Part shown: piece by piece, positions 1 to 63,766 of the stretch
Layout: each line of letters begins with the position of its first letter
How positions within the stretch are numbered: position 1 is the first letter of the stretch
Assembly (NCBI GenBank): GCA_965203425.1
Contig: OZ241891.1
Span: 91,289-155,288 of the forward strand
Reading direction: 5' to 3'
DNA from: Limisphaerales bacterium
GTDB taxonomy: Bacteria > Verrucomicrobiota > Verrucomicrobiia > Limisphaerales > AAA164-E04
Length of the DNA stretch: 64,000 nucleotides
Position numbers and translations under genes: made by a program
Notes under the pieces: generated by a model
The model's input: only the letters and a program-made list of their open reading frames with translations
Told to the model about the DNA's origin: nothing
Database searches by the model: none

Positions 1-572
1 ACCATCGCCGCTCTTCCCGCCCTGAAGACTTGGCCGAAGCGCGAAGCATTGAGGCCGAGTCAACGGCGTCTGGAAGTCCGTGGTTGAGGAATCGATTGAG
101 GAGTCCAAAGGGCGCCGGCACTGTGTTTGCTTTGGGGGCGGCTATGGTGATGGGAGGAAGTTGGCTTCTCGTGGATTCCGCAGAAAATTTGGCAAAGAAG
201 ATGGGAGTGTCGTCGATTGTGATTGGCTTGACGATTGTCGCCGTGGGAACTTCCCTGCCTGAATTGGTGACGGCGGTAAAGTCGGCGCGGCAAAACGTGG
301 CTGACCTTGGGGTGGGAAACATTTTGGGAGCCAACGTGGCCAACCTCACATTGGTCATCGGCGGGGCGGCTTCGTTCAAAGATTTGTCGATGGATCGGAT
401 GACGCAGGCGCTGAACTTTCCAGCCTTGATTATCGGCATGTCGCTTGTGTTTTGGATGCTCTTTTCCCGGCAAAGAATTTCCCGCCGCGAGGGGTGGATG
501 TTGATCGCTTATTATTTTGTCTATCTGGCTTTGGTAATGGGGAGTTCCGCGATGAATTCGGCGAAAACATAA
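1..572 (+). CDS. CaCA-family Ca2+/Na+ antiporter (YrbG-like), C-terminal half; 5' end lies outside the window
   Basis: The frame is open to the left edge. ORF 30..572 carries the alpha-2 repeat signatures GTSLPELVTAVKSA and GNILGANVANLTLVIGG plus several hydrophobic helices. Confidence 0.8.
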   Translation, partial: HRRSSRPEDLAEARSIEAESTASGSPWLRNRLRSPKGAGTVFALGAAMVMGGSWLLVDSAENLAKKMGVSSIVIGLTIVAVGTSLPELVTAVKSARQNVADLGVGNILGANVANLTLVIGGAASFKDLSMDRMTQALNFPALIIGMSLVFWMLFSRQRISRREGWMLIAYYFVYLALVMGSSAMNSAKT

Positions 573-1168
573 TGGCGCTCCAAGTTCACTTCAGGCGGGC
601 GACGGTAGAAGATTTGCCTAAACTGCGCGGTTTGTGGCGAACGGCCTTATTGCCCGCTCAAGACTTGGAAAAAACCTTGACAGAGTTCCAGTTGGCTGAA
701 GGTTTGGACGGGCGGTTGATGGGCGCGCTGGGCTTTCAAATTCTCAATCAAGACGCCCGAATTTACGGCGAAGCCTACACGCATTCGGAGACCGAATCTC
801 TGGTCAAGCCGCAGTTGTGGAATCGGTTGAAAGTGCTGGCGGCCAATCAAGGCGTTCACCGGATTTGGACTCAAGAAAAGTCGGCCTTTTGGCCGCAACA
901 AGGATTCGGCGGGGCAACGGTGGAAGATTGCAAACAACTTCCCAAGTCTTTTCAGCGGGCTTCGGGCTCTTGGCGAACGCTGACGCTTCGAGACGAAGCG
1001 GCGGAACAAAGAATCCAGCGGGAAGCCGGCCTGTTTGAAGCCGCCCGCGAGAAAAACCAGTCTCGCCTATCGTTGCAAGCCAAAGCGATTCGATGGATTC
1101 TCGGCTTTGTTGCCGTCGGATTCTGCGCCGCTCTATTTTACTTTGCCGTCCGCGCCTTGATCCGTTAA
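572..1168 (+). CDS. GNAT-like acetyltransferase-fold protein with a C-terminal transmembrane helix
   Basis: The ATG at 572 overlaps the upstream TAA (TAATG coupling). The N-terminus MALQVHFRRATVEDLPKL is typical of small GNAT proteins. The tail ILGFVAVGFCAALFYFAV is hydrophobic. The longer ORF from 452 is out-of-frame overlap. Confidence 0.45.
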   Translation: MALQVHFRRATVEDLPKLRGLWRTALLPAQDLEKTLTEFQLAEGLDGRLMGALGFQILNQDARIYGEAYTHSETESLVKPQLWNRLKVLAANQGVHRIWTQEKSAFWPQQGFGGATVEDCKQLPKSFQRASGSWRTLTLRDEAAEQRIQREAGLFEAAREKNQSRLSLQAKAIRWILGFVAVGFCAALFYFAVRALIR

Positions 1169-1300
1169 CAAACGCGCGGACAGAGCAACGCATTCGATTC
1201 AAAAAGAGGGCAAACACCTTCAAGCCTCTATCGAACGCCTCCCGCGCATTTTCCATAAAAGCGACAGGAAACCAACTCAATCCAAAAGCGAATTCAGAAT

Positions 1301-1552
1301 TCAGAAGGCTTGGCGTTTCTTTTGGAAATGTCGGAGAACGATTACAAAACCCAGCGCAAACAAACCAAAGACAAGAGCGTATTCTTGCGGTTCGGGAACC
1401 AAATCTGCAGGCGCGCTGGAAACTACCGCCCGCAAACCGCCCGAAGTCGGCGTCCCTTGAGTGTCGGCGGCCGCAAAATAAGGGCCGAAGATGTAGTTGT
1501 AAAAATACTCGCCGCCGGCTGTGACGGTGAATTCGTTAATGGGATAAGGCAA
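1301..1552 (-). CDS. Short ORF ending in a PEP-CTERM sorting signal; probably the 3' remnant of a larger secreted-protein gene
   Basis: The C-terminus VPEPQEYALVFGLFALGFVIVLRHFQKKR matches PEP + TM helix + basic tail. There is no signal peptide. The start is TTG, five codons after an in-frame TAG. Confidence 0.5.
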   Translation of the reverse strand: MPYPINEFTVTAGGEYFYNYIFGPYFAAADTQGTPTSGGLRAVVSSAPADLVPEPQEYALVFGLFALGFVIVLRHFQKKRQAF

Positions 1553-2932
1553 AGTGCCTTGCCTACTCTACGAGACGGCGTCGTTGATGGAATAGCTGAG
1601 CGAACTTGCCACAACTCGAATGCCCACCACGCGTCCACGCTTCCTAGTTTGATGACTTTGGTGGGCGTTGGGGTTTTCTTTTTGCGCTTCAAGACTAAGA
1701 GCATTTCGCCTTGATTGGTGTGGCCGGAGAAGAAGATTCGTTTTGGGTCGTAGGAAACGATGATGTACTGGATGTGGAAGTGTTTGGCCAGCCAGAGGCG
1801 AGTTTCTTTGCCCGGTAGCAGAGTAGCGGTGGATGCGGGCAGGACGAGTCCGGCTTTGCCGATGTTCGGGTCAATGTATTTGTGAACGAGTTCAATGAAG
1901 CCGTTGGTGTTGTGCGAACTGTTGAGTTTCAAATCTCGTTGAATGGATTTCTCTTTTGCGCAGTTTCTTTTCCACATCTATCTCATTTTCTTTTTTCTCA
2001 TCGGTTTTGTTGGGTTTGAATTGTTTAAACCGTTTGTATTCGATGGTGAACGGCGGGTTCATGATGGCGAAGTGGAAGGATGCGGGCATATGAATGGGTT
2101 CCGGTTGGCGCTCGAGGCCGTGGCCGGTGGAATGGTGGGAGAACAATTCGCCTTGGCCAAGTGGTTGGTAGAAGTACCAATCGTCTTTGTTGTCCAGCAA
2201 CATTTCCAATGAGCCGAGCCGGACTTCTTCTTTGCGTTCGGGGTGTTCGCCCAGTGGCATGGCGCGCAGTTGCGTATGCTTGAATTGGACGGAGGGCGCA
2301 ATCATGCCTAAGCCGGTTGCGGTTTGGAAGATGGCGCGGCGGTTGCAGTCGAAGCCGTAGAGCATTTTCTCGAACAAGGCGTTGGCCACTTCTTCGCGGT
2401 CTTTCTTCTTTACTTGGTCGAGGATGTAGTTGGCGCAGGCAATCAATAGCGTGCCGCTGCCGCAAGCGAAGTCGACGATGCGCAGGCTTTTGACTTTCTC
2501 CACGTCTTTCCAGTTGATGCGGGATTTATGGAACATCAGGCGGGTGAGCAGAGTAGCGGCCGGGAGAGTGGTATACATGGCGCCTTCGTGTTTGGCGGCT
2601 TCGATGGCGTTGCAGAAAGTAATGCCGACGACGTCTCTGGGCATTTCGCCTTTGGCCATTTGAATGGATTGGGCGGCTTGCGCGAGCAGTTTGACGACGT
2701 CGTTGCCGTGCTGTCCGATTTCGCCCCCGCAACTGGTCAATGCTTTGAGGATGGCGATGTTCCACGCGAGAATGTCTTTGTAATCTACCGTGAGCCATTT
2801 GTCGTAGGCGTCGATGAAGCAGGTGATGCGGTTGCCTGTGCCGTAGGGGAAGGGGACTTGAGGTGCCGCATCGATTCTCGCTTTTTGGAGGATGCGGGCG
2901 AGGTCCGCATTGAGTGAATGTTCGTCAGGCAT
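1423..2932 (-). pseudogene. N6-adenine DNA methyltransferase (gamma-class, N6_Mtase-like), frameshifted and probably 3'-truncated
   Basis: The ATG at 2932 (MPDEHS..) leads into motif I VDFACGSGTLL and motif IV MNPPF in ORF 1892..3190. The continuation (NTNGFIELVHKY, GKAGLVLPASTATLLPG, LLVLKRK) lies in another frame in ORF 1423..1977. The frames join at an A4 run on the coding strand (plus-strand T4 at 1954-1957). The last ~40 codons look out of frame and run into the PEP-CTERM remnant. Confidence 0.75.
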
Positions 2933-3065
2933 TTTTGTCTTTGGATTTATTGTCCCAATTTTCCTAGCGCAAGGAGGCAAGCTTACTCGATGGAAGGCAA
3001 AGCGCAAAATGGGAATCTGGAGGCTTGCCGTTTTTCCAGCGAAGGCGTAAAGTTTTGGGATTGTT

Positions 3066-4523
3066 ATGTTTTTCCAAAGAAAAGAACGTCGTTCGCCGTT
3101 TCGCTGGTTTGGTTTGCTTTGCGTTTTTCTAGCTTTTTGTTGGATCGCCGGCGCCGAGTCGAAGCGTTCGCCAAACATTGTCTTTATCATGGTGGATGAC
3201 TTGGGCTACGGTGATTTGGGTTGCTTTGGCGGGCAAGCGATTGAAACGCCGAACTTGGATCGCTTGGCGGCCAAGGGGATCGCCTTTTCCCAATGTTATT
3301 CCGGCTCCACGGTTTGCGCGCCCGCGCGGGCGACACTGATGACCGGCAAACACATGGGCAAGGTAGCGCTTCGCGGCAATACAGGCGGTATTCCTTTGCC
3401 GTCGGAAGAAACCACGATTCCCGAACTTTTGAAACAGGCCGGCTACGTTACCGGCGGCTTTGGCAAGTGGGGACTGGGCGACATCGGCACGGAGGGAGTG
3501 CCCGAAGCGCAGGGCTTTGACCTTTTCTACGGATATTATCACCAAATTCACGCCCATTATTTCTATCCCGATTATCTGGTGCGGAACAGCGAGAAAGTGA
3601 TGTTGCTTGGCAATGCGGGATTCTACGACGCAAAGCCGAAGGCGGGTTTTGTGGAGGCGGTTGATCCGGCAACGGGAAGGAATCGGCAGTTTGCCCACGA
3701 TCTTATTTTTGCCGAAACGCTGAACTTTATTCGCAAGCATCGGCAGTCTCCATTTTTTTGTTATGCGCCTTGGACGCCGCCGCACGGCCGCTACGAGTTT
3801 CCGGCGGACGATCCGGCGGCCTTGAAATACGCCGACCGGCCTTGGTCGATCAAAGCCAAAGTGATTGCCGCCATGGTCTCGCAAATCGACCGCCAAGTCG
3901 GCGAGTTGTTGAACTTGCTGGACGAACTGGGGATTGCTGAAAACACGATTGTCTTCTTCTGCTCGGATCACGGCGCGGCGGAACGGCTGGACGGCGAACT
4001 CAATTCCTGCGGCTCTCTCAAAGGCCGCAAGCGAAGCATGTATGAAGGCGGATTGAGAACGCCGATGCTCGTCCGCTGGCCGGGTAAAATCGCCGCCGGA
4101 CGCAAAAGCGACTTCGTCTGGTATTTTCCCGACGTTCTGCCGACTTTGCTGGATTTGGCAGGAATGGCCGGCGCAACGCCCGAAGGTTTGGACGGCGTTT
4201 CCATCCTGCCGACTTTGCTGGGACAAGGCTTGCAGCGGCAACATCCCGAACTTTACTGGGAGTGGCCGAAATACGACTGGAAAAACCGCCGATACACCAA
4301 TCTGATGCAAGCGATCCGAATGGGCGATATGAAACTCCTCCGCCACCAAAGAGGCCAACCTTGGGAACTCTACAACATCTCAACTGATCCCGGAGAAAAC
4401 GACAACTTGGCGGCAATCTACCCCGGCATCGTCGCCCGAATGAGCCTGCGCATGCAGGAAATCCGAACGCCGCATAAACCTCTCCCAGAGCCTGCTATGC
4501 CGCCGGGCCGCAGATACCGTTGA
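3066..4523 (+). CDS. Arylsulfatase A-family sulfatase, secreted
   Basis: Signal peptide present. PNIVFIMVDDLGYGDLGCFGG is followed by the formylglycine motif CAPARATLMTGK. The C-terminus is sulfatase-like (SDHG, EGGLRTP). Confidence 0.92.
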   Translation: MFFQRKERRSPFRWFGLLCVFLAFCWIAGAESKRSPNIVFIMVDDLGYGDLGCFGGQAIETPNLDRLAAKGIAFSQCYSGSTVCAPARATLMTGKHMGKVALRGNTGGIPLPSEETTIPELLKQAGYVTGGFGKWGLGDIGTEGVPEAQGFDLFYGYYHQIHAHYFYPDYLVRNSEKVMLLGNAGFYDAKPKAGFVEAVDPATGRNRQFAHDLIFAETLNFIRKHRQSPFFCYAPWTPPHGRYEFPADDPAALKYADRPWSIKAKVIAAMVSQIDRQVGELLNLLDELGIAENTIVFFCSDHGAAERLDGELNSCGSLKGRKRSMYEGGLRTPMLVRWPGKIAAGRKSDFVWYFPDVLPTLLDLAGMAGATPEGLDGVSILPTLLGQGLQRQHPELYWEWPKYDWKNRRYTNLMQAIRMGDMKLLRHQRGQPWELYNISTDPGENDNLAAIYPGIVARMSLRMQEIRTPHKPLPEPAMPPGRRYR

Positions 4524-4765
4524 CCGCACTTTGCCTTCGGCTCGCCGACAAAGCCAATCCGCCGGCAGAAACAAAATTCCGACGGGCGGAAAAAGAGACT
4601 GGACTTTTTAGACAATCGAAATATTCTGCCTTCGGCCTTGTAACGCAAATCACAGAATCAAATCCCCCGCCGACGCAAGCGAAGAGTTTGATGCGGAGAA
4701 TCGCAGTGGTGAAGGAATGGAAAGCCTCCATATTAGCCTGCTAACCATAGGACGGGCGAGGAGAG

Positions 4766-5053
4766 ATGGGCAAGAAGAATGACGAGAAGACGCTGCTCTG
4801 GCGGCTCTACGACAAGCATTATTGCAAGTATAGCCAGCGGGATCCAAACCAACCGGAGATGCAGTTTGCGCCGGCCAAACGAGACTTCGCCTTCGAACGC
4901 TGGATAGGGGATCATCCACAGTATGTGACTTACGTGCATCGGGGAGCGGGCAGCGGAGAGGGCAATTATGTCGACACGAATTTCCAGTTGCTCGTGGCGC
5001 ACGGGAACGTGGAGATGTGGGCAAAGAACTGCGTTTGTTGTGGGAAGAAATAG
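4766..5053 (+). CDS. Hypothetical protein (first of two overlapping ORFs)
   Basis: ORF only, with no recognisable motif. It overlaps the next ORF in a different frame around 5017-5053, so the two may be one gene split by a frameshift. Confidence 0.3.
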   Translation: MGKKNDEKTLLWRLYDKHYCKYSQRDPNQPEMQFAPAKRDFAFERWIGDHPQYVTYVHRGAGSGEGNYVDTNFQLLVAHGNVEMWAKNCVCCGKK

Positions 5054-5292
5054 ACGGGGACTTGGAAGACTATCCTTTGCGGCGCAAGGCTTTTTGGAAG
5101 GATTACACGAAGGAAGAATGGGAGCAACGCCTGCGCCAACTCCCCCGCGTCTATGGGGGATGCAGCTGGCAGAAGAATCACAAAGAACAATTGAAAAACA
5201 AGATAAAGCGGATGCGGGAATTAGAAGCAGAAATCCGCCGCAGGCAAGAGGCGGGAGAGAGCATTACCGAGGATGGCGAGCCGGGACCGTAG
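5017..5292 (+). CDS. Hypothetical charged coiled-coil-like protein (second overlapping ORF)
   Basis: ORF only, with a GTG start. The C-terminal half is K/E/R-rich (KEQLKNKIKRMRELEAEIRRRQEAGE). Confidence 0.3.
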   Translation: MGKELRLLWEEIDGDLEDYPLRRKAFWKDYTKEEWEQRLRQLPRVYGGCSWQKNHKEQLKNKIKRMRELEAEIRRRQEAGESITEDGEPGP

Positions 5293-5403
5293 AAAGAGTT
5301 CTGTGAACACGGCCCGATACTGGCTATTTCTCTGCCGCTTGGCTGCTTGTTTTATTACGGGATGTGGAAAATTGGGAAACATATTTGGCATGCTATTTTT
5401 AAC

Positions 5404-5431
5404 TTGACTTTTATTGGATTTTGTGTATAGT
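5404..5431 (+). promoter_or_regulatory. Sigma70-like promoter candidate upstream of the YceI-like gene
   Basis: TTGACT (5404-5409), a 16-nt spacer, then TATAGT (5426-5431), in an AT-rich intergenic stretch. A TTAATTAA palindrome follows. Confidence 0.3.
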
Positions 5432-5483
5432 TTGATTAATTAATAAACACAAAATAAGGAATGAAAAAGAATCCATTGCATTT

Positions 5484-6134
5484 ATGAAGTCCAAACAACG
5501 CAAACCGAATTCGCAAATTATGACGGGATTTTTCGCGCTGGCCGCTGTTGCTCTGGCCGGTTGCAGCGATCCCGCCGAAGGCGTGAAAGAAGCCGAAGTC
5601 GCGGCGCCCGCAGGCGAAAGCGCAGAAACAGAGGCGGTTGCCGGCGCCAAAACCTACACAATCCACCCGGACTCGAAGATAGACTTTACCGGATCCAAAA
5701 TCACCGCCAGCCACAGCGGCGGCTTCAAAACCTTCGCCGGCACAATTGCAGTCGCCGACGGAAACCTCGCGCCGCCCAGTCGCATTGAGATCGACATGAA
5801 CTCCACTTGGTCAGACAACGAGCGTTTGAGCCGGCACTTGAAAAACAAAGACTTCTTCGATGTTCCCACTTATCCCACCTCAACGTTCGTCCTCACTGCC
5901 TCAGAGCGATCCGGCGAAGAATACACAATCACCGGTGACCTTACCCTCCACGGCGTTACAAAAAGCATCCGCTTTCCCGCAAAAATCTCGATTACCGACG
6001 AGCAAGTAAGCCTGACGGCCGAATTTTCCATCATGCGCTTTGACTTTGACATCGTCTATAAAGGAAGAGCCGACGACTTGATCCGCGACAGAGTGGTCAT
6101 TCGACTGGACGTCAAAGCAATCGCCGACGCTTGA
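5484..6134 (+). CDS. YceI-like polyisoprenoid-binding lipoprotein
   Basis: Lipobox LAGCS. The YceI-domain pattern reads YTIHPDSKIDFTGSKITASHSGGFKTF ... ITGDLTLHGVTKSIRFPAKI. Confidence 0.85.
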   Translation: MKSKQRKPNSQIMTGFFALAAVALAGCSDPAEGVKEAEVAAPAGESAETEAVAGAKTYTIHPDSKIDFTGSKITASHSGGFKTFAGTIAVADGNLAPPSRIEIDMNSTWSDNERLSRHLKNKDFFDVPTYPTSTFVLTASERSGEEYTITGDLTLHGVTKSIRFPAKISITDEQVSLTAEFSIMRFDFDIVYKGRADDLIRDRVVIRLDVKAIADA

Positions 6135-6185
6135 TTCCCTAAACACAGTCAAAACCCAATTCTGCGTCGCGGCGACTCCCCGCTT

Positions 6186-9100
6186 GTGCCGGAGAAATTT
6201 CGGCGCGAGCCGATCCATTGCAGCCAAGCCGTGAACGAAAAACCCAGCAAACAGCGGCACATTCTGGACAATCAGACCGCTAAGGTTTTCCACTATCTGC
6301 AAGAAAACCTTGCCGACGCCGACTCCTTCCGCCTCGTCTCCGCCTACTTCAGCATTTACGGCTACGACTTGCTCGCCAAAGAACTGAACACCGTCCGCCA
6401 AGTTTGTTTTCTCTTCGGCGACCCCGCCTCGATAAAAGAACCTGATCCAGTCGCCAAAGAACCCAAATCCTTTGCCTTTACCGAGCGAGGACTTTCGCCG
6501 CACCGCACTTTGCAACAGAAGCAACTGGCCCGACAATGCGCCCAATGGATGCAAAAAGACGCCGTAAAAGTCCGCTCGATCAGGCATTCCAACTTTTTGC
6601 ACGGCAAAATGTACCTTGCCGAATCCGCCGGCAAAACCCCCAGTGCCGTCATCGGCAGCTCCAACTTTACCCGGCGCGGACTTGGCAGCAACGACGGCGC
6701 CAACCTCGAAATTAACATCGCGCTCTCCGACGGCCCACTCCTTGCCGAACTGCGCGCTTGGTTCGACAAACTCTGGAGCAACGACGACCTTACTTACGAC
6801 GCCAAACGAGAAGCTCTCAACGCCCTCAACCGCCTCGGCAAGGACTACGCTCCAGAGTTCATTTATTTCAAAACGCTCTACGAACTCTTCCGCAACGCTC
6901 TCAAAGACCAAGACGACTCCGATCGACACATCCGCGAAACACAACTCCAAGACACTGCCATTTGGAACGCTCCGCTCTTTGGATTCCAAAAGGATGGCGC
7001 GAAAAGCGTTATATCCAAGCTGAACCGACACAACGGCTGCATTCTCGCCGACAGCGTCGGACTCGGCAAAACCTACACCGCGCTGGCTGTCATCAAATAC
7101 TACGAACTCCGCAACGAGAACGTCCTTGTCCTCTGCCCTAAGAAACTCATGGGCAACTGGTCATTGTATCAGGCGGCGAACAACCATGTCCAGAACCCGT
7201 TTGCGGAAGACCGTTTCGGCTACACCCTGCTGGCACACACCGACCTGTCGCGCGAGCGGGGAATGTCCGGCGGGATAAACCTCGCTAATTTCAACTGGTC
7301 GGCGTTCGACATGGTCGTCATAGACGAATCGCACAACTTCCGCAACGATGGCGGCAAGCGCTACCGGAAGCTGCTTGACGACGTTATCAAGGGAGGCGCG
7401 CGGACGAAAGTCCTCATGCTGTCGGCGACGCCCGTCAACACAAGCCTAATCGACCTCCGCAACCAGATTTACCTGATGACGGAGAAGCGCGAGGACGCCT
7501 TCCGCGAGAGTTTGGGTGTGGGCGACATCCGCCAAATCATGAAAGACGCCCAGCGCGAGTTTCAGATTTGGGAAAGCGGGCTTTCGCGCGACAAGGCGGG
7601 GCTTATGAGCAGACTCGGTGCGGACTTCCTGCGCCTGCTCGACGGCGTCTCCATATCGCGCTCGCGGCGGCAGATAGAGCACTTTTACGCCGAAGACTTG
7701 AAGCGAGAGCGAGTGGGCAGCTTCCCGAAGCGCAAAGCCCCCCGTCAACCTCTACCCGCCCACCGATACGCTCGGCGAGCTTTCCTACGACGGGGTCGCC
7801 GCCGTCATAAACAGATTCGCCCTCTCCATATACCGTCCGTCCGACTATCTGCTCGCGGTCTCCAAGCCCCGCGAGAAACAGGTCGCCCGAAATCTGGTCG
7901 GGATGATTCGAACCAACTTCCTCAAACGGCTTGAAAGCTCGCCGCGCTCGCTCGCTCGCACCTTGCGCCGAGTCATCGGGAAAATGGATAAGCTGCTGGA
8001 AAAGATAAGACTGTATCGAGAAGGCTCTCCGATCGTCGCGCTCGCAAGCCCGGGCATGGGAATGTTTCCGGGAGAACTATTAGAGAGACGGTTGCCCGAC
8101 GACGCAACGGATGACGGCTACGCCACTTACGGCGATGACGAAGCCATCGAAGACGACGAAGATTTCGTCAAAGACAGCCACGACCGCCGCTACAGACTCT
8201 CCGAGATGGACTTGAGCCGCTGGCAGGCGGACATGGAAACCGACCGCGCCATGCTGGCGGACGTCCTGAAAGATGTGGATAAAGTCACGCCGGAGCGCGA
8301 CGGCAAGCTGCGGAAAATCAAAGAAATCATCCGCGAAAAGGCGACGAACCTGACAATCGACCGCGACGGCAACGCAAACCGCAAGACGCTGGTGTTCACC
8401 ACTTTCAAGGACACGGCGCGGTATTTGTACGAGAATTTGACCGATCTCGCCCGCGAACTGAATATCAAAATCGCAATGGTCTCGGGCGACGAAACGCACA
8501 CCTCGGTTGGCGACAACAATTTCAACGCCATCCTCACTAACTTTGCCCCTGTCGCGCGCAACCGCAGGGCCGTGGACGCCGCCGCGGACATTGACCTGCT
8601 AATCGCCACCGACTGCATATCCGAAGGGCAGAACCTGCAGGATTGCGATAGGGTGATCAACTACGACATCCATTGGAACCCCATCAGGATAATCCAGCGT
8701 TTCGGGCGCATAGACCGCATCGGCAGCCAAAGCAAAACCGTCCGCATGGTCAACTGCTGGCCGACGGAGGATATGGACGCCTATCTGCGTCTCGAGAACC
8801 GCGTTCGGACGCGGATGGCGCTCGCGGACGCCGCCGCCACCGGCGACGCCAACCCGCTCGACGAGGACGCCGCTCGCCGTGAAATCAAGTTCCGCGACGA
8901 CCAGCTCTTGCGCCTGCGCGAAGAAGCTGTCGCGCTGGAAGACGTCCCCACTCTGGGCGACTTCACAATGGACTACTTCCTCGCTCAACTCCGCCAATAC
9001 TTGGAGAAAAACAAAGCCGAACTCGAAGCCGCCCCCATCGGCGCCTATGCCATAACACCCTCAAAACCCGCAAACGGCGACGACTCCGGCGTAATCTTTC

Positions 9101-9514
9101 TCTTGCGCCAAACCAACACCTAAGCCCTCAATCCCTGCCAGCGCACCGCAAGCCCCGTTCATCCCTTTTCCCTTGTCTACATTAAAAACGACGGAACCAT
9201 CCGTTACGGCTGCGCCAGCATCCGCCAAGCCCTCGAATTCTTTGAAAAGATCGCCGCCGGCCAAACAGAACCCATCATGCGCCTCTGCGACTGGTTCGAC
9301 CGCGAAACCGCGCAAGGCAGGCAAATGCAACGCTATGACGAGCTGCTCAAAAAAAGTCGCCGCCCACATCCGGCAAGCGCACAACGACGCCCAATTCTCC
9401 GCCCTTAAATCCGGCGGCGGCCGCGAATTCATTCTTCCAAAAATCTCTGAATCGCCCAACAATGCAAACAATCTTGAATTAATCACATGGCTGATTATCG
9501 CTGGGAAAATCTAG
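6186..9514 (+). pseudogene. PLD(HKD)-nuclease domain fused to an SNF2-family helicase; broken by two frameshifts and one nonsense codon
   Basis: HKD motif HGKMYLAES..GSSNFTRRG. SNF2 motifs are ILADSVGLGKTYTA, VVIDESHNFRN, MLSATPVNT, LIATDCISEGQNLQ and HWNPIRIIQRFGRIDRIG. Reading frame 0 changes to frame 1 at a C6 run (7738-7743). An in-frame TAA sits at 9121-9123 with a conserved-looking continuation (HPFSLVYIKNDGTIRYG). Frame 1 changes to frame 2 at an A7 run (9349-9355). The ORF ends LELITWLIIAGKI at 9514. Confidence 0.85.
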
Positions 9515-9798
9515 AGCTCGTTGGTCGCATCGAAGTGGCTCTTGCTAGAATCAAAGGGGTTAACTTTTCTGTGGGGGTGCGGAGGCTTCTGGGGGTTATG
9601 GGGTATGAGAGCGAGCGGGTTTGGGAAGGGAGGAGCGGGGGTTTTGAGAGGGGGATTGCTTGGCTTGGGAAGCCGGAGACTTCTGGGGAGCGAGAGTTAT
9701 TGAGGCATGCTAGCTTTGTTGGTTTGGTTTTCCAATTTGCTGAGGAAGAGATGCGGGGGGGGGGGGGGGGAGCGTCTTTCCGAGGAGAGCCTTCATAG
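9487..9798 (+). other. N-terminal segment of the downstream methyltransferase, cut off by the poly-G tract
   Basis: ATG at 9487 (MADYRWENLELVG...). The frame reads through the G tract as GGGGG and stops 8 codons later. Removing one G fuses it in frame to ORF 9707..12562. Confidence 0.7.
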
Positions 9799-12562
9799 AA
9801 GTTTTCTTTTCTTGGCTGTGGCGCTCAAAAAGGCTTCTTATTCGCGTCGTCAATACGCCTTGTTCGTCCGCGTCCTTAACAGACGCTTTGGCATCCCCGC
9901 CGTCGTTCTCTTCCTTGACCAAGACGAACTCTTCACGCTGGCCTTTGTTTATCGCCGTCCCAATAAGCGCGAGCCTAAGCGCGATGTGCTTGGAAGAGTG
10001 TTTTTGATAAGAGAAATTAATCCGCGCAATCCTCACCGCGCTCCCTTGGACATTCTCGCCTCTCTTTCGTTGGACGCCCGCCTCCGCTGGATGAGCGACA
10101 ACCGCAAGCCCCGCAACTTTGACGGACTCCTTGACGCATGGCTGGCCGCGCTGGACGCTCAGGAACTCAACAAGCGCTTCTATCGCGAACTCCTTGCTTG
10201 GTTCGAGCGCGCCTGCGAGCAAGCCAGATTCCCAAAGGTCGGCGCCAGAACCTTCCGTCCGCAAGAGCATGTCATCCGGCTCATCACCCGCTTGCTCTTC
10301 ATCTGGTTCCTCAAGGAGAAGAGCCTTGTTGCTTCCGAACTCTTCGTCGAGCAGCAAGTCGCCTCGCTCCTCAAAGACTACGACCGCGACTCCGGCGACT
10401 CCTACTATCGCGCCATTCTCCAAAACCTCTTCTTCGCAAACCTCAACACTGAAATCGACAGACGCGGTTTCAGCAAGGGGAGCAACGCCACGCACCGCGA
10501 TTTCTCTCGCTATCGCTACGAGAAGGAGATCGCTACCCCCGCCCAGTTGCTCGCCCTGTTCGCGCAAACGCCGTTCATCAATGGCGGCCTGTTTGACCGC
10601 TACAAGTTCACCATCGAGGAAAACACGCCCGTCGAACAGGACGTCGCCCTAGATCCCAAACTGCTCGGCAAGGTGTTCGAGAATCTCCTCGCCGCGTACA
10701 ACCCCGAAACCCGCGACACCGCCCGCAAGCAGACCGGCTCTTATTACACCCCGCGCCCTGTGGTGGATTACATGGTGGATGAGGCATTGGTGGCAACACT
10801 GGCGCAAGCGTGTTCGCCAAGCGATGCCGACACAGGGTTTTGGCAAGATCGGTTGCGCTATTTGCTGGACTACGAGGATGCGTTCAACGACGCCCATGAA
10901 CTGTTTGAAGAGGATGAAACAGCGGGCATTGTGCGGGCGATTTCCGAGATCAAAGTGCTCGATCCGGCGGTCGGTTCCGGCGCCTTTCCTATGGCCATCC
11001 TCCACAAACTCATCTTAGCCTTGCGCCGCCTCGACCCTCACAACCACCGCTGGCAACATCTCCAACAAGAACGCGCCCGCGCCAAAGCAGACGCGGCGTT
11101 TGACACGAAAGACCCACGAGAACGCAAAGCCGAACTCAATGAGATCAGCGACACCTTCGAGCAGTATTCGGGCGACTTTGGACGCAAGCTGTATCTCATT
11201 CAAAACAGCATTTTCGGCGTGGATATTCAGCCCATCGCCACGCAGATCGCCAAGCTGCGCTTCTTCATCTCCCCCGCCATCGAACAACAACCCAACCCCA
11301 ACCCCCAAGACAACTTCGGCATCCAGCCCTTGCCCAACCTAGAAACCCGCTTTATCGCCGCCGATACACTCCTCCCGCTCCACAGCAAGATAGATCAACT
11401 TCCTACCAACGACATCCATGACCTCCGCAGAGAACTCGCATCCAACCGCGAACAACATTTCCACGCCGCCAATCCTCACAAGAAGCTGGAATATCGAACC
11501 AAAGACAAAGAACTCCGAGAAAAACTGGCCGCCGCCCTCCGCGCCGCCGACTTTTCCTCTGAGGCCGCCCGCAAAATCGCCCACTGGAATCCCTACGACC
11601 AAAACGCCCAAGCCCCCTGGTTCAACCCCCATTACATGTTCGGCATCCCCCAAGGCTTCCACATCCTCATCAGCAACCCCCCTTACATCCCACTCCAAAA
11701 AAACCAAGGCCAACTCGCCCAACTCTACCAAAGCGCCAACTACCAAACCTTCGCCCGAACCGGCGACCTCTACCAACTCTTCTACGAACGCGCCTGCCAA
11801 CTGCTTCTGCCAAAGCGCGGCCTGCTCGCTTATATCACCTCCAACAGTTGGCTGAAGGCGCAATACGGCAAATCCACGCGCCGCTATTTCGCCGAGCAAC
11901 ACACGCCCCTGCAACTGGTGGAAATGGGCAAAGATGTTTTTGAAAACGCCAGCGTTGACACCAACATTCTGATAGCGCGTCGCGGCAAAAGCGATGCGAT
12001 CTGCAAGGCGGTGGACATGGATCGCCTGCCCGATAAAGACTTCCCGCCCAACGAAAAACATTGGTCGCCTTTTACTCCGCAACTCGCAAAACGCCAAGAC
12101 CAAGGCCAAACTCCCTACAACCTCCGCCCCTGCGCCTACCACCAAGACTTTGAAAAAGAAAAGCTAGTGTGGACGGATATATCAAGAGAAGGTCGTTTTT
12201 CCTACGATGACGGAGGAATATACTGCGAAGCCACTGCATTTATGATGACTGGGAACAGCATCAAATACCTATGCGCTTTGCTTAACGCAAAACTAACTCA
12301 CTGGTTTCTTCGGCAAAATTCGCCGCAACTGGGTACGGAGGCATTGCGCTGGAAAAAGGTTTATGTAGAAAACATCCCCATCCCCAAAATCTCCGCCGCC
12401 GAACAACTCCCCTTCCTCCGCCTAGTCGATTGCATCCTGGCCTCCAAAGCCTCTAACCCCGCCGCCGACACCGACAAGTTAGAAAAAGAAATCAACCACC
12501 TCGTCTATTCCCTTTACGGTTTAACGGCAGATGAAATCGTAGCAGTGGAAAATCGAACTTGA
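9707..12562 (+). CDS. Eco57I/PglX/DrmMI-type N6-adenine DNA methyltransferase with a TaqI-like C-terminal specificity domain (longest ORF in the current G16 state)
   Basis: GSYYTPRPVVDYMVDEAL, motif I VLDPAVGSGAFPMAILHKL, motif IV ILISNPPYIPLQ. The C-terminal TRD-like region reads KLVWTDISREGRFSYDD..LNAKLTHWFL..VENIPIP..LYGLTADEI. Confidence 0.88.
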   Translation: MLALLVWFSNLLRKRCGGGGGERLSEESLHRSFLFLAVALKKASYSRRQYALFVRVLNRRFGIPAVVLFLDQDELFTLAFVYRRPNKREPKRDVLGRVFLIREINPRNPHRAPLDILASLSLDARLRWMSDNRKPRNFDGLLDAWLAALDAQELNKRFYRELLAWFERACEQARFPKVGARTFRPQEHVIRLITRLLFIWFLKEKSLVASELFVEQQVASLLKDYDRDSGDSYYRAILQNLFFANLNTEIDRRGFSKGSNATHRDFSRYRYEKEIATPAQLLALFAQTPFINGGLFDRYKFTIEENTPVEQDVALDPKLLGKVFENLLAAYNPETRDTARKQTGSYYTPRPVVDYMVDEALVATLAQACSPSDADTGFWQDRLRYLLDYEDAFNDAHELFEEDETAGIVRAISEIKVLDPAVGSGAFPMAILHKLILALRRLDPHNHRWQHLQQERARAKADAAFDTKDPRERKAELNEISDTFEQYSGDFGRKLYLIQNSIFGVDIQPIATQIAKLRFFISPAIEQQPNPNPQDNFGIQPLPNLETRFIAADTLLPLHSKIDQLPTNDIHDLRRELASNREQHFHAANPHKKLEYRTKDKELREKLAAALRAADFSSEAARKIAHWNPYDQNAQAPWFNPHYMFGIPQGFHILISNPPYIPLQKNQGQLAQLYQSANYQTFARTGDLYQLFYERACQLLLPKRGLLAYITSNSWLKAQYGKSTRRYFAEQHTPLQLVEMGKDVFENASVDTNILIARRGKSDAICKAVDMDRLPDKDFPPNEKHWSPFTPQLAKRQDQGQTPYNLRPCAYHQDFEKEKLVWTDISREGRFSYDDGGIYCEATAFMMTGNSIKYLCALLNAKLTHWFLRQNSPQLGTEALRWKKVYVENIPIPKISAAEQLPFLRLVDCILASKASNPAADTDKLEKEINHLVYSLYGLTADEIVAVENRT
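9755..9770. repeat. Homopolymeric G16 tract inside a methyltransferase coding region (candidate contingency/phase-variation tract)
   Basis: Direct count gives 16 consecutive G at 9755-9770. It is the longest homopolymer I noticed in the window. Confidence 0.95.
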
Positions 12563-12610
12563 CGGCTTTGGCTGGTCTGTTTTACGGTTTTCTCAAAAAG
12601 AAAATTGAGA

Positions 12611-13474
12611 ATGAACGAAATCGACAGAACGAAGGAAACTTTGCCCAATTTCGGCGGATATTGGACGCGTAAAAAATTGGATATACTTGAACGATATCTT
12701 GATGCTTACACCACCGCATTGAAACGCAAGTCTTTCAGTTTGATGTACATAGACGCGTTTGCCGGCACAGGAGACATCGGACGACGTCAGCAAGAAGATG
12801 AAGATGCAAAGATGCTCATTGAGGGTTCCGCGAGCAGAGCATTAAAAATTGACGACAAACTTTTTGATCGGTTGATCTTTGTTGAAAAAGACCGTGATCG
12901 ATACTGTCAACTAAGAAATCTATGTCAGAAAAATTCGGGCAGAGACATTCGAATTGAAAATGCCGATGCAAACTCTTTTCTGGCCAATAAATTGCAGGAA
13001 GATTGGAAGAAGTGGCGCGGCGTTCTTTTTTTGGATCCGTTTGCAACCGAAGTCGAGTGGAAAACCGTTCGACATATAGCGAGATTTAAGTTGGACGTCT
13101 GGATTCTTTTTCCAACTTCTGCAGTGATTCGTATGTTGCCTAAATCAAGAAAACCAGATCAAAAACTGGCTGGGACTTTGACTCATGTTTTTGGCGACGA
13201 GAGCTGGCGATGTCTCTATTCCGTCAATCCGCAACAGTCTTTGTTTGGCGACAAAATGCATCAAAGAGATAGAGGCAGTTTTGACATCATCAAACTATAC
13301 AAGGACAAATTGCACGAACTGTTCGGCAATAGATTTATGGAAAAATCTAAGACGCTCAAAAACTCTAAAAACGCTCCTCTCTTTGAGTTTATGTTTTGCG
13401 TTGGCAGCTCGAGTCCAAAAGCAATAGATCTTGCCAAAGGAATAGCTAAACATATCATAAACATGGTCGATTGA
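12611..13474 (+). CDS. TcmP-like (three-Cys-motif partner) protein, predicted methyltransferase fold
   Basis: GGYWTRKKLDILERYLDAYTTAL, a motif-I-like YIDAFAGTGD and a motif-IV-like LFLDPFATE. It lies directly upstream of a DUF5131 gene with a 3-nt gap, which is the known TcmP pairing. It is visibly more AT-rich than its neighbours. Confidence 0.6.
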   Translation: MNEIDRTKETLPNFGGYWTRKKLDILERYLDAYTTALKRKSFSLMYIDAFAGTGDIGRRQQEDEDAKMLIEGSASRALKIDDKLFDRLIFVEKDRDRYCQLRNLCQKNSGRDIRIENADANSFLANKLQEDWKKWRGVLFLDPFATEVEWKTVRHIARFKLDVWILFPTSAVIRMLPKSRKPDQKLAGTLTHVFGDESWRCLYSVNPQQSLFGDKMHQRDRGSFDIIKLYKDKLHELFGNRFMEKSKTLKNSKNAPLFEFMFCVGSSSPKAIDLAKGIAKHIINMVD

Positions 13475-13477
13475 TGC

Positions 13478-14185
13478 ATGGCTTTACAAACGCAGATTGA
13501 ATGGACTGGAGTGACTTGGAATCCGGTGACGGGTTGTTCGAAGGTGAGCGAGGGGTGTCGGCATTGTTATGCGCATCGGCTGGCGTTGCGGCTTCGGGCG
13601 ATGGGCAATCGGCGATATGCCAATGGGTTTCGGGTAACTTTGCACAAGGATTTAGTGGATGCGCCGTTTCGATGGCGTTCGCCTCGCGTGGTGTTTGTGA
13701 ACTCGATGAGTGATTTGTTTCATCACAAAGTGCCGGTTTATTTTCTTCGGCAAGTGTTTGAGACGATGAACAAATGCCGGCAACACACTTTCCAAATACT
13801 CACGAAGCGAAGCGAGCGGCTGCGACGGTTGGCCGGCAAGTTGGAGTGGACGAAAAATATCTGGATGGGAGTTAGCATTGAAAACGAGAGCGTATATCAT
13901 CGCATTGAGGATTTGCGACAAGTTCGATCCCATGTGCGTTTTTTGTCGTGCGAGCCTTTGATTGGCCCGATAGAGGAGTTGCCTCTGGACGGCGTTCATT
14001 GGGTGATTGTCGGCGGCGAATCAGGACCGGGGGCTAGGCCAATGAAAACCGAGTGGGTGCGCTCGATTCTGGAGCAGTGCAGGAAGTCTGGGGTGCCGTT
14101 CTTTTTTAAACAATGGGGCGGGGTTTGCAAGCGTCAAAACGGCCGCATGTTGGACAATCGCACTTACGATGAAATGCCGGTGTAA
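13478..14185 (+). CDS. DUF5131 / phage Gp37-Gp68 family protein (three-Cys motif)
   Basis: The N-terminus TQIEWTGVTWNPVTGCSKVSEGCRHCYAHRLA is the family hallmark. Later comes HWVIVGGESGPGARPM..PFFFKQWGG. Confidence 0.85.
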   Translation: MALQTQIEWTGVTWNPVTGCSKVSEGCRHCYAHRLALRLRAMGNRRYANGFRVTLHKDLVDAPFRWRSPRVVFVNSMSDLFHHKVPVYFLRQVFETMNKCRQHTFQILTKRSERLRRLAGKLEWTKNIWMGVSIENESVYHRIEDLRQVRSHVRFLSCEPLIGPIEELPLDGVHWVIVGGESGPGARPMKTEWVRSILEQCRKSGVPFFFKQWGGVCKRQNGRMLDNRTYDEMPV

Positions 14186-22056: not shown

Positions 22057-23580
22057 TTAGGCTAGATCCGATTGGATGGTCGTTCCGATGTTGACGAGAG
22101 GTTTTCCGTTTAGGGGGTTGACCATGATTGGCAGTTTGGGGTAGACGCCGTCTTTGCCTTTGAAACGGTCTGTAATTGGCCAGTGTTGCATTCTGCGGAA
22201 CGAACGAGTTCCGTTCGGCATTTTGAAAGTTCCCAGCGAGAGAGCCTTTTGTTCGAATCCCTTTGTCCATTCCTTGTCGTCCATCGTGATGAAAATGCCC
22301 GCCGCCACTTTGGGGTTGGATTTGATGACTTCCGCAAACGCCCGAACGCTATCCACGCTCACTCGCCCGCTTTTGACTTGGACGATGATTTCATCCTCGC
22401 CGTCTTCGGTCTTTCCGTGAAGCAGGCCTTTGCCGTCAATGCCGCCGTCGCCTCGCTTGATTTTGTTGGAGAGAATACCGATGTCGCCAAAGTTCAGTGT
22501 CTCGGCCGCCCACGCTTCAAAAGCGAATGGGTCTTGTTTGGCCAACAGTCGCGCGCCGGTGATATTGGTTGGGATGCCGTAAACGGGAATGTCGATTCCG
22601 CATTTGGATTTAATGCGTTTATGCGTGACCGAATGGATAGAGAAAACCGAGATGTCAATGCCGATAAAGCGGCGGTTGTTATTGATTGCGGAATGGATGG
22701 AAGTTCCACAGCCGCAGAAAGGGTCAAAGACGATGTCGCCTTCGTTGGTGGATGCCTTGATAATGCGATCCAGCAAAGCCAGCGGTTTTTGAGTGGGGTA
22801 GCCTTCGTATTCGTTGCCCCGAACAAATGGAATTTCCCACCAGTCTTCCCGAACGACGCCCTCTGACTTCAAATAGATATTGGAATAAGTGCCGTCTTTG
22901 TTGAGAACTCTGGCATATTTTTTGCCCTCTTTATCAGTCTTGTTGTATCTACCCACATGCTCTTCGGCAACCGGACGGCTTGCTCCAATCCGATTGAAGA
23001 AGTATTTGTCGGATTTTGAGTAAAAGAGAATGGAGTCGTGTTTTTTTTGAAACCATCTTTTCGCCATTTCTCTTCCGCCATAACACCAAACAATTTCATT
23101 CCTGTAATTTTGGGGGCTGAAGATGGCGTCCATGAGTAGGCGGAGGTAATAGTTCGCAGTTGGATCGCAGTGGAGGTAGATGGATCCTGTTTCTTTGAGA
23201 AGTTGTTGGCACAGCCAGAGGCGGTCGGCCATGTAGCTGAGGTAAGCCAGCATCCCGGAATCGCGCTTTTCCAAATAGCCGCGCAAGCTGGCAAAGAGTT
23301 CGCGGGCTGGATGAGCGGGAGTTTTGAGGATGACCTCGACTCGCTCGGCGGATTGCTCGTCCCAAGTCCACATATCCGTGAACGCATCCATCGATCCGGT
23401 GTCGCTATCTTTGGATTTGGAGGTGGGTGCGCCGTAGTTGCGGTTGCTATTGAACGGCGGATCCAGATAAATCAGATCAATGATACCCTGCACGCCTTTT
23501 TCTTTCCAAGCAGTCATTATGTCGGCGCAATCCCCATAATAAGCCGCATCCGGTTGGTAATCTAGGTTTATCGTTGTCAT
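22057..23580 (-). CDS. Beta-class N4/N6 DNA methyltransferase fused to a C-terminal Mrr-like (PD-QxK) restriction-endonuclease domain
   Basis: Motif IV IDLIYLDPPFNSN lies upstream of motif I FDPFCGCGTSIHSA, with YPTQKPLALLDRII between them. The C-terminus has GDGGIDGKG ... IIVQVKSGRVSVDSVRAF, typical of Mrr_cat. Confidence 0.85.
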   Translation of the reverse strand: MTTINLDYQPDAAYYGDCADIMTAWKEKGVQGIIDLIYLDPPFNSNRNYGAPTSKSKDSDTGSMDAFTDMWTWDEQSAERVEVILKTPAHPARELFASLRGYLEKRDSGMLAYLSYMADRLWLCQQLLKETGSIYLHCDPTANYYLRLLMDAIFSPQNYRNEIVWCYGGREMAKRWFQKKHDSILFYSKSDKYFFNRIGASRPVAEEHVGRYNKTDKEGKKYARVLNKDGTYSNIYLKSEGVVREDWWEIPFVRGNEYEGYPTQKPLALLDRIIKASTNEGDIVFDPFCGCGTSIHSAINNNRRFIGIDISVFSIHSVTHKRIKSKCGIDIPVYGIPTNITGARLLAKQDPFAFEAWAAETLNFGDIGILSNKIKRGDGGIDGKGLLHGKTEDGEDEIIVQVKSGRVSVDSVRAFAEVIKSNPKVAAGIFITMDDKEWTKGFEQKALSLGTFKMPNGTRSFRRMQHWPITDRFKGKDGVYPKLPIMVNPLNGKPLVNIGTTIQSDLA

Positions 23581-52521: not shown

Positions 52522-54545
52522 AACAAATCAAACGCAATGCGTATTCTTTGGGTTTGAGAATGATTCTGCTGTGGACGATAACCCGCACCAAGCCATTAGT
52601 GTTGCCGCTAAGAAGGGGACGTAAGCCTCTGCTCTTTGATTAGGAGAAACCTAATAGGTCCACAGAATTATTGTCGCTTTGCGCATGGAAGTCGCTAATG
52701 AGCTTGTTGATCCAACCCGCTCTTGCCTAAGAAGAAGGCAGATTGGTAGAATAGAACAAACGGCTGAAGAAGCGAATTCCCAAGGGCATCGTATGGATTA
52801 TCCTAGTCCACCCAAAAATGCTCAATCGTTCTGCCGTTAGCGCTGACAATGGCAATCATCGGCGCGTTGAGACACGAGCGGCAAAGTCAATGTTGGCGTT
52901 GGTTCTGCCTTTGCCCGAAATTCTCTTTCTTGCCGAATCGATGTCTTCGATATTAGAGCTCGCCAATCAGAAAGAATGGAGAAAGTTCGCATCCTTAGAC
53001 TTGCTGGCGTTGTCAATGTGTCTGCCGTTATCTGAGAAGTAAATTTCTCAACTGTCTTGATTGCGAACATTTCTCTCCCCGCTAGATCTTATCGAGTTGC
53101 CGGCTTGTGTTATAGAGGGCTTGGAGAAAAACCAGAGGGGTCTGGTTGGCCTTGTTTTGGCTATGGTAGAGACAATATACGACTGCGCTCAGCTTTGCTT
53201 TACAGAAACCAAAGAAGAAAGCGCCGACACGAGCAACGCCGCTAAAAGAGACTTCCGGCTGATGCTGGTTGCTTTCGTTTTGACGCAAACACAAGGGGAT
53301 TCTCTTCCTCATGTCTCCTCTGAACTAGTTTCAAAATCTAAGAGACTGCGGATGCGAACCAATCCACGATGGAATCCACAAAGGCGATTTATGTTTTGGA
53401 GGAACGCTTCTTCGCCGGCGTCCAGCGATGCTTGGGAATGCGTTCTGGCTGGTTCGCTGTCTCTGGCCGGATGCCTTGTCCATTCTCAAAATGCGAAAAG
53501 GGAAGAAAAGAGGAAAGGAAGTTTGTTAGAAACGACCAAGAGCGCCAAGAAGCGCGTCATCCCATCTTGCCGTTGTGGGGAGGAAGTTTTGTTGGATTGA
53601 TGTTTCTGGGAGGTTTGGTGTTGGGGGATTCGTTGTTGGAGTGACTAGTGGTGAGAGGGTGTTTTTATGTAAGCTTTATAGTCAACGGTTGAGGTTGCTT
53701 TTGAGTTATTGGATGGTTGAGGGTATTCTGCGGGGATTGCTATGTTGTGAAAGGAATGATGCGGTGAAGGGATTTCTGTTGCTGGCGGTTGTCTATGCAA
53801 AAGAAGGAAAAGAGGAAGAAAGGTTAGGGTGGATTGGGGTTGGTCGGGGGAGAAAGGTAGGCTTTTATATGGGGAAGTATTTTATGGATTGCATTGGGTT
53901 TGTTTTTGCATGATGCATGCGTGTGGTTAGGGTTTTCAAAGTTTGGGGATTGTAAAGGAGGGAGGGAGATGGTCTTTGTGGTTGGTGGATTGGGAGAGTA
54001 GGGGGGCTTGCAGGGGATTTTTTAGTTTTGGCGTCCGTTGGGGATTGATTTTGCTGATTGGGAATGCTTGGCTAGGAACGTGCTGGTTTCTGGTTGTTGA
54101 GAAGTGATGGAGTTTGTTGGTTTCGGTATTGGCGTTTTTTGGATGCGGATGAGGGGGCAAAAGGAGAAGTAGTCGAGAGGATGTGTGAAAGGGCAAATCA
54201 CTGGGCGATGACTTTGCAAAAAAGGGGAAGACTTTGCTGTTTTTGCATTGTAAACTGCTGAATGCTAATTATGGATTGTATGGTGGTTGGCTAGGTGGGA
54301 GTCTGTAGAGAGAGTGGTTGGTTTTGTAAATCTGTTGGTTGAGTTGTCTTTGCTAAGGGGATAGGTTTTTCGATGTTTGTTGGTTTGTTGGGTGGGGAGG
54401 ATGGTTTTGGCGGTAGAGGGGATTTTGTGCGGGTTTTTCTCTTTTTGTTTGGGATGGGTTGTTGGGATTTGTTTTGGTTTTCTATGGGGATTGGTTCTCG
54501 TTTTTGGTGTCTCTCTGTTTGTGGAAACGTGCGCCGGTTGGGCGT

Positions 54546-55766: not shown

Positions 55767-55990
55767 GAAGTCAATCTTGCCTACCGGAATCAAAACACAA
55801 GGCTGTTCCTTGGGTCAAAGAATTATTGCGCGAAAATCCCGACGCGAAAAATTCACAAAAAGTTCTTGCTTTGTTTCAAAAATTTCGGCTAAGTGTAACA
55901 GATTGATTTTGTTCAAACATGACAAACGCACACCGCAGAGGCGCGTAAAATGGCCCGATTGACGCGCTTAATTCAGCCCATGGGAGTTTC

Positions 55991-59788: not shown

Positions 59789-59864
<76 letters not shown>

Positions 59865-63669: not shown

Positions 63670-63766
63670 GGAGAGTCAAGAGTGGCTGGTGTCCTCCGCG
63701 GTCTTCAAAACCGTTGTCGGTCTGTTCCGCAGGCCGAGGTGGGTTCGATTCCCACCCTCTCCGCCA
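63670..63766 (+). tRNA. tRNA-Sec(UCA)?: 97-nt class-II-like tRNA with a UCA anticodon (tRNA-Sec candidate or opal-decoding tRNA), CCA encoded
   Basis: Hand fold: anticodon arm GCGGT-CTTCAAA-ACCGT, an 8-bp variable arm TCGGTCTG/CAGGCCGA, T arm G(G)TGGG-TTCGATT-CCCAC(C), acceptor GGAGAG/CTCTCC + G + CCA. I could not fold the D arm into the canonical 6-bp bacterial Sec stem. Confidence 0.6.

Follow-up and report, generated by a model that had tools for sequence, protein, structure and literature searches.

The window, by which we mean the whole 64-kb stretch of DNA that was analyzed, carries a large adenine methylase gene with a gene for an HKD(PLD)-nuclease/SNF2-helicase (PLDc_2, SNF2-rel_dom and Helicase_C domains; hereafter HKD-SNF2) immediately 5' of it. 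The other neighbors of the methylase locus are a YceI gene, a PDC-M41A/B pair and glycosyltransferase genes. The features on which the analysis turns are listed below.

6186 to 9514, + strand: decayed HKD(PLD)-SNF2 helicase-nuclease gene, its homology spread over three frames.
7738 to 7743, + strand: C6 run at which the helicase homology first changes frame (from 3 to 1), located from the homology frames.
9121 to 9123, + strand: in-frame TAA stop within conserved helicase sequence (between LRQTNT and ALNP), located from the homology frames.
9349 to 9355, + strand: A7 run at which the helicase homology changes frame again (from 1 to 2), located from the homology frames.
9481 to 12086, + strand: segment duplicated in contig_57 of ENA sample ERZ26167651 (locus L082, 9995 to 13404), with 1 mismatch outside a 190-nt divergent patch (10611 to 10800).
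9487 to 9798, + strand: stub ORF of 103 codons, comprising 89 native methylase N-terminal codons, GGGGG plus 9 out-of-frame codons, and a stop.
9487 to 9850, + strand: island of G/T-ending codons around the tract, with a GC skew of +0.5; GGG makes up 9 of the 12 Gly codons, all 6 Ala codons are GCT, and Arg is encoded by AGG or CGG.
9707 to 12562, + strand: long ORF of 951 codons, the remainder of the methylase, with an Eco57I-type N6-adenine core (DPAVGSGAFPM, NPPY) and a truncated TaqI_C; its first 16 codons are out-of-frame sequence 5' of the tract.
9755 to 9770, + strand: G16 homopolymer that begins with the second base of methylase codon 90 and throws the 935 codons 3' of it out of frame.
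10590 to 10605, + strand: junction of an in-frame deletion of 44–46 codons (FINGGLFD/RYKFT; lost CLDS...PNRLFF...L), from the alignment with 120 relatives.
12080 to 12095, + strand: site where about 115 codons of the target-recognition domain are deleted in frame, between two 'PQL' motifs, with loss of PW..GTPL..W..GxxTGxNxAF; identity with the second copy stops here on its 3' side.

The sixteen consecutive G are flanked by C (9754) and A (9771), and no other homopolymer of the window exceeds 8 nt. Window G/C runs have lengths of 1–7 and then 16, with nothing between, and the number of runs of at least 16 nt expected is 6e-5 (independent bases) or 4e-5 (first-order Markov). When the tract length was varied in silico, G15 and G18 restored the frame from 9487 to 12562 (1024 and 1025 codons, respectively), and G14, G16 and G17 gave a truncated ORF. 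A change in length hence toggles between a full-length and a truncated ORF, as in phase-variable methylases driven by simple-sequence repeats, and the tract exceeds the homopolymer length of about 8 nt within an ORF or promoter that is used to recognize them. An earlier, sequence-only reading of this DNA had placed sixteen G 89 codons into the methylase frame, had the ATG at 9487 read through GGGGG to a stop ending at 9798, and had predicted a single ORF of ~1024 codons over 9487–12562 with G15 or G18. The run count and the N-terminal profile score (below) bear out the first point, and the 103-aa product and the ORFs of 1024 and 1025 codons bear out the others. Its statement that tracts this long are an established slippage switch in restriction-modification genes is likewise supported. 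It had also proposed that starting at the ATG at 9707 costs 74 N-terminal residues. The long ORF from 9707 to 12562 is indeed present, but the product begins with 16 out-of-frame residues, and therefore all 89 native N-terminal residues are lost, not 74.

Relatives were collected by a database search with the frame-restored protein, and the best 120 of thousands (1080–1391 aa, 53–65% identical) were used throughout. Against a profile of their N-termini, the 89 native residues of the stub scored 51 bits (E = 3.5e-15), compared with 5.6 bits for the best of 500 shuffles, and the relatives' N-termini align with the residues before the tract (..LGYeSeR.., ..FQ.t..EI..). The 89 codons 5' of the tract are, on this homology, the genuine methylase N-terminus. 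The tract itself falls in the most variable linker of the N-terminal domain, between 'FQ.t..EI' and 'SFLF.AVEL'. Because the N-termini align and the linker has a normal length, the tract is not an assembly chimera; a poly-G read artefact at this position was ruled out in the same way, both sides being collinear with the family alignment.

The methylase matches Eco57I (1.3e-30), N6_Mtase (2e-9) and TaqI_C in Pfam. In PADLOC, it matches REase_MTase_IIG at 1e-110, and PglX (1.5e-18) and DrmMI (7e-13) partially. These profiles and the intact catalytic motifs I (DPAVGSGAFPM) and IV (NPPY) identify a gamma-class N6-adenine methylase core of the Type IIG/Eco57I family, to which the PDB sequence matches were restricted. 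The gene is predicted to encode an Eco57I/Type IIG-like N6-adenine methylase that is no close relative of PglX/DrmMI. The sequence-only reading had considered it a PglX/DrmMI-type methylase; this assignment had to be given up, as the Type IIG models score far better and the BREX/DISARM core genes are absent. We found no Pfam match to a nuclease domain in the N-terminal ~450 residues of the methylase polypeptide, and the HKD-SNF2 partner seems to provide the nuclease.

The window methylase lacks two segments in addition to its frameshift. The 44–46 residues after FINGGLFD, 13 of them near-invariant, are kept in 120 of the 120 best relatives, and a gap like the ~115-residue loss from the recognition domain was seen in just one other sequence (P0062). 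The TaqI_C-type recognition domain is incomplete, its match spanning profile positions 35–118 of 118 with the GxxTGxNxAF block deleted. Of 282 near-invariant columns, defined as those shared by 119 or more of 121 sequences, the window methylase deviates at 28, whereas every relative deviates at no more than 8; the substitutions include T318N, E391K, L596P, R663P, Q735P and G951E. Judged by sequence conservation, the in-frame product does not have the make-up of a functional methylase, and a frame-restored enzyme with so shortened a recognition domain would be unlikely to be active. We noted that the 951-codon ORF has no further stops and that both large deletions are in frame, which is compatible with very recent decay and also with residual constraint. 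The dN/dS of the methylase versus its nearest relatives is 0.05–0.2; most of the divergence therefore arose under selection, and the decay is recent.

The partner gene fares no better. Helicase homology runs through 6189–7757 in frame 3, 7741–9357 in frame 1 and 9278–9505 in frame 2, and from these interruptions the helicase-nuclease gene is predicted to be dead in the window. PADLOC DrmD models match it weakly. Among 80 related loci, an HKD-SNF2 gene lies directly upstream of the methylase in 59, and in 58 of these 59 it is uninterrupted in a single frame, mostly about 1080–1130 aa long, and ends at the methylase start. By contrast with these two genes, at least eight other genes of the window match their Pfam profiles over the full length (sulfatase, lactonase, DUF5131, DUF1015, ABC transporter, YceI, N6_N4 methylase and glycosyltransferases), which makes the damage a local matter and not an assembly-wide one.

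Nearly all of the 80 related loci come from genome bins of sponge symbionts, namely Poribacteria, Latescibacterota, Caldilineaceae, Dehalococcoidia, Binatia, Longimicrobiales and Spongiihabitans. Their flanks beyond the two genes vary from locus to locus (AMP-ligase, menaquinone genes, CBASS, IS21). There was no Pfam match to DUF499 or DUF3780 among the window neighbors or the ten flanking ORFs of four relatives, and no BREX (brxC, pglZ) or DISARM (drmA, drmB, drmC) core gene in the window locus. Since the flanks differ and these partners are missing, the conserved unit is a two-gene operon, putatively an ATP-dependent restriction-modification-like one. Membership in BREX, DISARM or the Type-2 BREX-related (BR) systems was ruled out by the missing core genes. 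Broken members occur elsewhere in the family: transposase-carrying insertions split the methylase in L031 (10871–14422) and the helicase in L017 (4884–6441). Homopolymers as a general route of decay in this family were also ruled out, as the other broken copies show non-homopolymer frameshifts or insertion sequences. At L067 (6211–7995), a duplicated fragment of the methylase N-terminus is followed by a sigma-factor-like gene.

Several further observations concern the surroundings of the operon. Directly 3' of the methylase (12605–14185) lie apparently intact homologues of PDC-M41A (2e-73) and PDC-M41B/DUF5131 (6e-117), a PADLOC candidate defense pair; the codon usage of the DUF5131 gene is G3-rich, unlike that of the adjoining operon. 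The gene at 22057–23580 on the - strand is intact and encodes a 507-aa protein in which an N6_N4_Mtase is joined to an Mrr_cat nuclease domain, and a 432-aa ORF at 1892–3190 (- strand) has a weak N6_Mtase match. Sulfatase genes flank the region (window 3066–4523; L081 1–1512), and L082 encodes N_methyl (prepilin-type) proteins; both would suit, but do not establish, a Poribacteria or another PVC-like sponge symbiont as the source. An Rfam scan of the window returned a tRNA and a tRNA-Sec alone, with nothing near the tract; the tRNA-Sec gene (59.8 bits) and the ordinary tRNA lie at 63670–63762 and 59789–59861, respectively, and the organism presumably uses selenocysteine.

The methylase gene is a recombination mosaic: residues 300–600 are 94–98% identical to one group of relatives and residues 150–300 are 84–88% identical to another, and residues 1–100 reach at most 46% identity to anything. 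Its base composition also changes along its length. The G/T island around the tract contrasts with the rest of the gene, which has a GC skew of -0.2 and C-ending codons, and with the relatives' N-termini (mean skew -0.06, maximum +0.26), among which no comparable island was found. Genes of the window and L082 fall into two classes by third codon position. The C-ending class (C3 0.40–0.61) comprises YceI, the helicase, the methylase, GT9 and GT4 glycosyltransferases and DUF1015; the G/T-ending class (G3 0.35–0.50), which the island resembles, comprises DUF5131, lactonase, a HEAT-repeat gene, prfA and an OEP gene. As the classes partly follow the strand, they suggest a strong strand-specific mutation bias together with recent gene import or inversion. 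The island might be another mosaic segment or older resident DNA. An origin of the island by hypermutation or as an artefact of two-color chemistry was found to be unsupported, given the two codon classes of this genome, the resemblance of the island to the G3/T3 class and the mosaic structure of the gene. Elsewhere, ~1 kb of non-coding DNA at 53560–54530 consists of 18% A, 8% C, 38% G and 37% T, with a GC skew of up to +0.75. It lies between an ORF at 53061–53600 (+ strand) and the DUF1015 gene at 54546–55793 (- strand), contains no long ORF and no Rfam match, and shares no sequence similarity with the island beyond composition.

Other copies of the locus were sought in public assemblies. The stub protein and its YceI neighbor are recorded in contigs of ENA sample ERZ26167651 alone, all with G16. 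Contig_8 of this sample equals window 1–10213 at 100% identity, the G16 included, and ends 440 nt past the tract, breaking inside the repeat that is shared with contig_57. The contig_57 copy again has G16 and the same 45-codon deletion; it has no helicase upstream and adjoins rpmE/prfA, and its identity with the window begins 6 nt ahead of the ATG. Its divergent patch carries 1-nt and 13-nt deletions, and its recognition domain is complete but of another type (like P0057 and P0062). This second copy is even more broken than that of the window. Although the two copies, being nearly identical, must have separated recently, G16 in both is mildly unexpected for a freely slipping neutral tract. All recoverable copies (window, contig_8, contig_57) read G16 and might represent one data set, the G16 contigs possibly having been assembled from the same reads as the window. 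Being too similar, and possibly from the same reads, the copies are uninformative on the stability of the tract. An in-frame allele was found neither in the protein collection nor in the three contigs. Exact-protein look-ups with DUF5131 and PDC-M41A returned no other assembly, a DNA pattern allowing 8–30 bases between the tract flanks had no match in the metagenome collection, and a protein-based metagenome scan revealed no relative above 47% identity.

The sequence-only reading had suggested looking for G tracts at the same position in orthologs, and none was seen among the relatives. Tracts do occur at other positions: the 80 sponge-symbiont loci (1.46 Mb) contain 5 G/C tracts of at least 16 nt against 0.01 expected. 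These and one shorter tract are as follows.

L053 (CBDATE010000018.1, Pseudomonadales bin), 7967 to 7982: C16 in the methylase N-terminal domain, ~30 codons further upstream than the window G16; apart from the tract, which leaves it 1 nt out of frame, the gene is intact.
L069 (OY730414.1, Longimicrobiales bin), 10689 to 10709: in-frame C21 (PPPPPPP) at a conserved FPP site of an intact methylase.
L009, 11612 to 11627: G16, 15 nt past the methylase stop.
L080, 11725 to 11749: C25 upstream of a lipoprotein gene.
L011, 6107 to 6123: C17 in a promoter-like spacer.
L070, 916 to 926: C11 in frame in a Fic-domain gene.

The methylase of L053 would be in frame with C14 or C17. Across the related loci, the operon holds no excess of tracts compared with its flanks: 4 of 8 fall within it, and it makes up about 42% of the sequence. 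More distant relatives, represented by 80 loci of other metagenomes (0.54 Mb), showed neither a G/C run reaching 9 nt nor an A/T run reaching 10 nt, which may reflect biology or sequencing technology. Long G/C homopolymers could be a recurrent contingency mechanism for the two-gene HKD-SNF2/methylase operon and for neighboring island genes in uncultivated sponge symbionts of several phyla, the window copy being a switch that was left off and then decayed. We regard this broader proposal as tentative and, on balance, doubtful.

For the window itself, we consider it reasonably probable that the G16 is a genuine, slippage-prone homopolymer in the methylase of a recently decayed two-gene operon, that both genes are now pseudogenes, and that the tract no longer toggles a working methylase or a restriction phenotype. 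With several further inactivating lesions in both the methylase and its partner, the tract is no more than the remnant of an ON/OFF switch. To judge from the known properties of such tracts, slippage would still alter its length, with no phenotypic output. The tract might have begun as a contingency switch or as the first disabling hit, after which the operon would have stayed off, escaped selection and gathered further lesions. It is, in short, an ordinary and probably relic tract within a restriction-modification operon that decayed recently.

Three other explanations were weighed against this reading. The tract might never have been a switch: the 5' 360 nt of the gene could have drifted to, or been imported with, a G/T-rich composition, within which a GGG-rich linker expanded by slippage free of selection. 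The skew and the Gly codons of the island point this way, as do the non-coding DNA at 53.56–54.53 kb, which is equally G/T-rich and C-poor (C 8%), the absence of a tract at the G16 site in relatives, and the lack of enrichment of tracts in the operon. However, that 1-kb G/T-rich region tops out at a G run of 7, so composition alone does not give G16. The stub, moreover, keeps significant homology and is stop-free over its 89 codons, and long tracts normally shrink in the absence of selection. We consider a purely neutral by-product unlikely.

Another explanation is that the tract is real but its reported length is off by 1–2 bases, in which case the ORF would be continuous and there would be no biological frameshift. 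The modal length could in truth be 15 or 17–18. Long homopolymers are the weakest point of long-read consensus, and the names 'contig_8' and 'contig_57', together with the related bins, suggest long-read metagenome assemblies. Furthermore, all three frameshifts of the operon sit in homopolymers (C6, A7 and G16), and the end of contig_8 440 nt after the tract betrays difficulty in assembly. On the other hand, G16 recurs at two different loci, runs of 6–7 bases are normally resolved well, and neither the TAA stop nor the two large deletions are homopolymer errors; the remaining window genes are intact, and an in-frame tract would still leave the gene unrepaired. A consensus artefact is, in our view, quite unlikely. 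An active ON/OFF switch of a functional methylase, in which G15/G18 versus G16/G17 would change the methylome and possibly expression in subpopulations, is highly improbable: the length of the tract and its position in the ORF fit the mechanism, G15 or G18 yields a 1024/1025-codon ORF, motifs I and IV are intact, the 951 codons contain no extra stops, and the otherwise intact relatives L053 (C16) and L069 (C21) bear tracts, but two methylase segments are missing, 28 of 282 near-invariant sites deviate, the nuclease-helicase partner appears dead, and the in-frame allele is absent from the protein collection and the three contigs.

The proposal of the sequence-only reading that the tract is a candidate working phase-variable (phasevarion-type) switch is not supported, then, for a methylase without its 45- and ~115-residue segments and with a partner gene broken three times. 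The window tract, a hypermutable repeat in a dead restriction-modification operon, is itself of little consequence, poly-G methylase switching being textbook knowledge. Its lesson is that a frame-restoring homopolymer ought not to be taken for a switch before the integrity of the gene and its partners has been checked. The wider findings are a compact HKD-SNF2/methylase operon that is common to sponge symbionts of many phyla, heavily recombined and without DUF499, BREX or DISARM partners, and the recurrence of long G/C tracts in these loci. L053 and L069, whose genes are intact, are the real candidates for switching. If true, length heterogeneity in such intact relatives would extend repeat-driven defense switching from pathogens to uncultivated animal symbionts; a full-text literature search returned no paper combining sponge symbionts, restriction-modification and phase variation.

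Among known systems, the Type III mod phasevarions of Haemophilus, Neisseria and Helicobacter likewise turn a methylase ORF ON and OFF through a simple-sequence repeat inside it. They differ in methylase family and architecture (mod/res) and have a shown regulon, whereas here there is no functional methylase to drive one. The window operon may also resemble the Type ISP enzymes (LlaGI, LlaBIII), restriction-modification units in which a nuclease and an ATP-dependent, helicase-like motor work together with a gamma N6-adenine methylase and its recognition domain. Those enzymes, however, are single polypeptides with an Mrr-type nuclease, whereas the window operon specifies two polypeptides with an HKD/PLD nuclease.

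Closer in gene content are the Type-2 BR systems and class 1 DISARM (DrmD/DrmMI), in which an N-terminal HKD endonuclease fused to a Swi2/Snf2 helicase is paired with a large N6-adenine methylase, as found in the window. BR systems, however, need a DUF499 ATPase, those of Type-2, with their HKD-SNF2 and methylase effectors, need DUF3780 as well (PMC12839542), and DISARM needs DrmA, DrmB and DrmC; none of these is present in the window or conserved beside the relatives.

The sequence-only reading was not aware of a description of the mechanism for a PglX/DrmMI-type methylase in a PVC-type bacterium. Poly-G switching is nevertheless known for pglX itself: a G tract drives Pgl phase variation in Streptomyces coelicolor, according to the account of Sumby and Smith (2003) cited in PMC4365076. 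The resemblance to pglX (Pgl, BREX type 2) extends to a large phage-defense N6-adenine methylase, to expansion and contraction of a G tract in coding sequence, and to a non-pathogen host. By contrast, the window protein is only distantly similar to PglX, pglZ, brxC and pglW are absent here, and Pgl switching frequencies have been measured.

The second precedent is cj0031, a Type IIG gene of Campylobacter jejuni that is phase-variable through poly-G (Anjum et al., 2016, as relayed in PMC8355987); restriction-modification genes belonging to the cj0031 group are phase-variable in only a few strains (PMC8355987). Both cj0031 and the window gene specify a gamma N6-adenine methylase of the Eco57I/Type IIG-like class whose recognition domain lies at the C-terminus, and in both an intragenic poly-G sets the frame. 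Yet cj0031, as that source relays it, functions as one polypeptide, and its effects on methylation, phage resistance and expression have been shown, whereas in the window the nuclease is a separate HKD-SNF2 protein and both genes are decayed.
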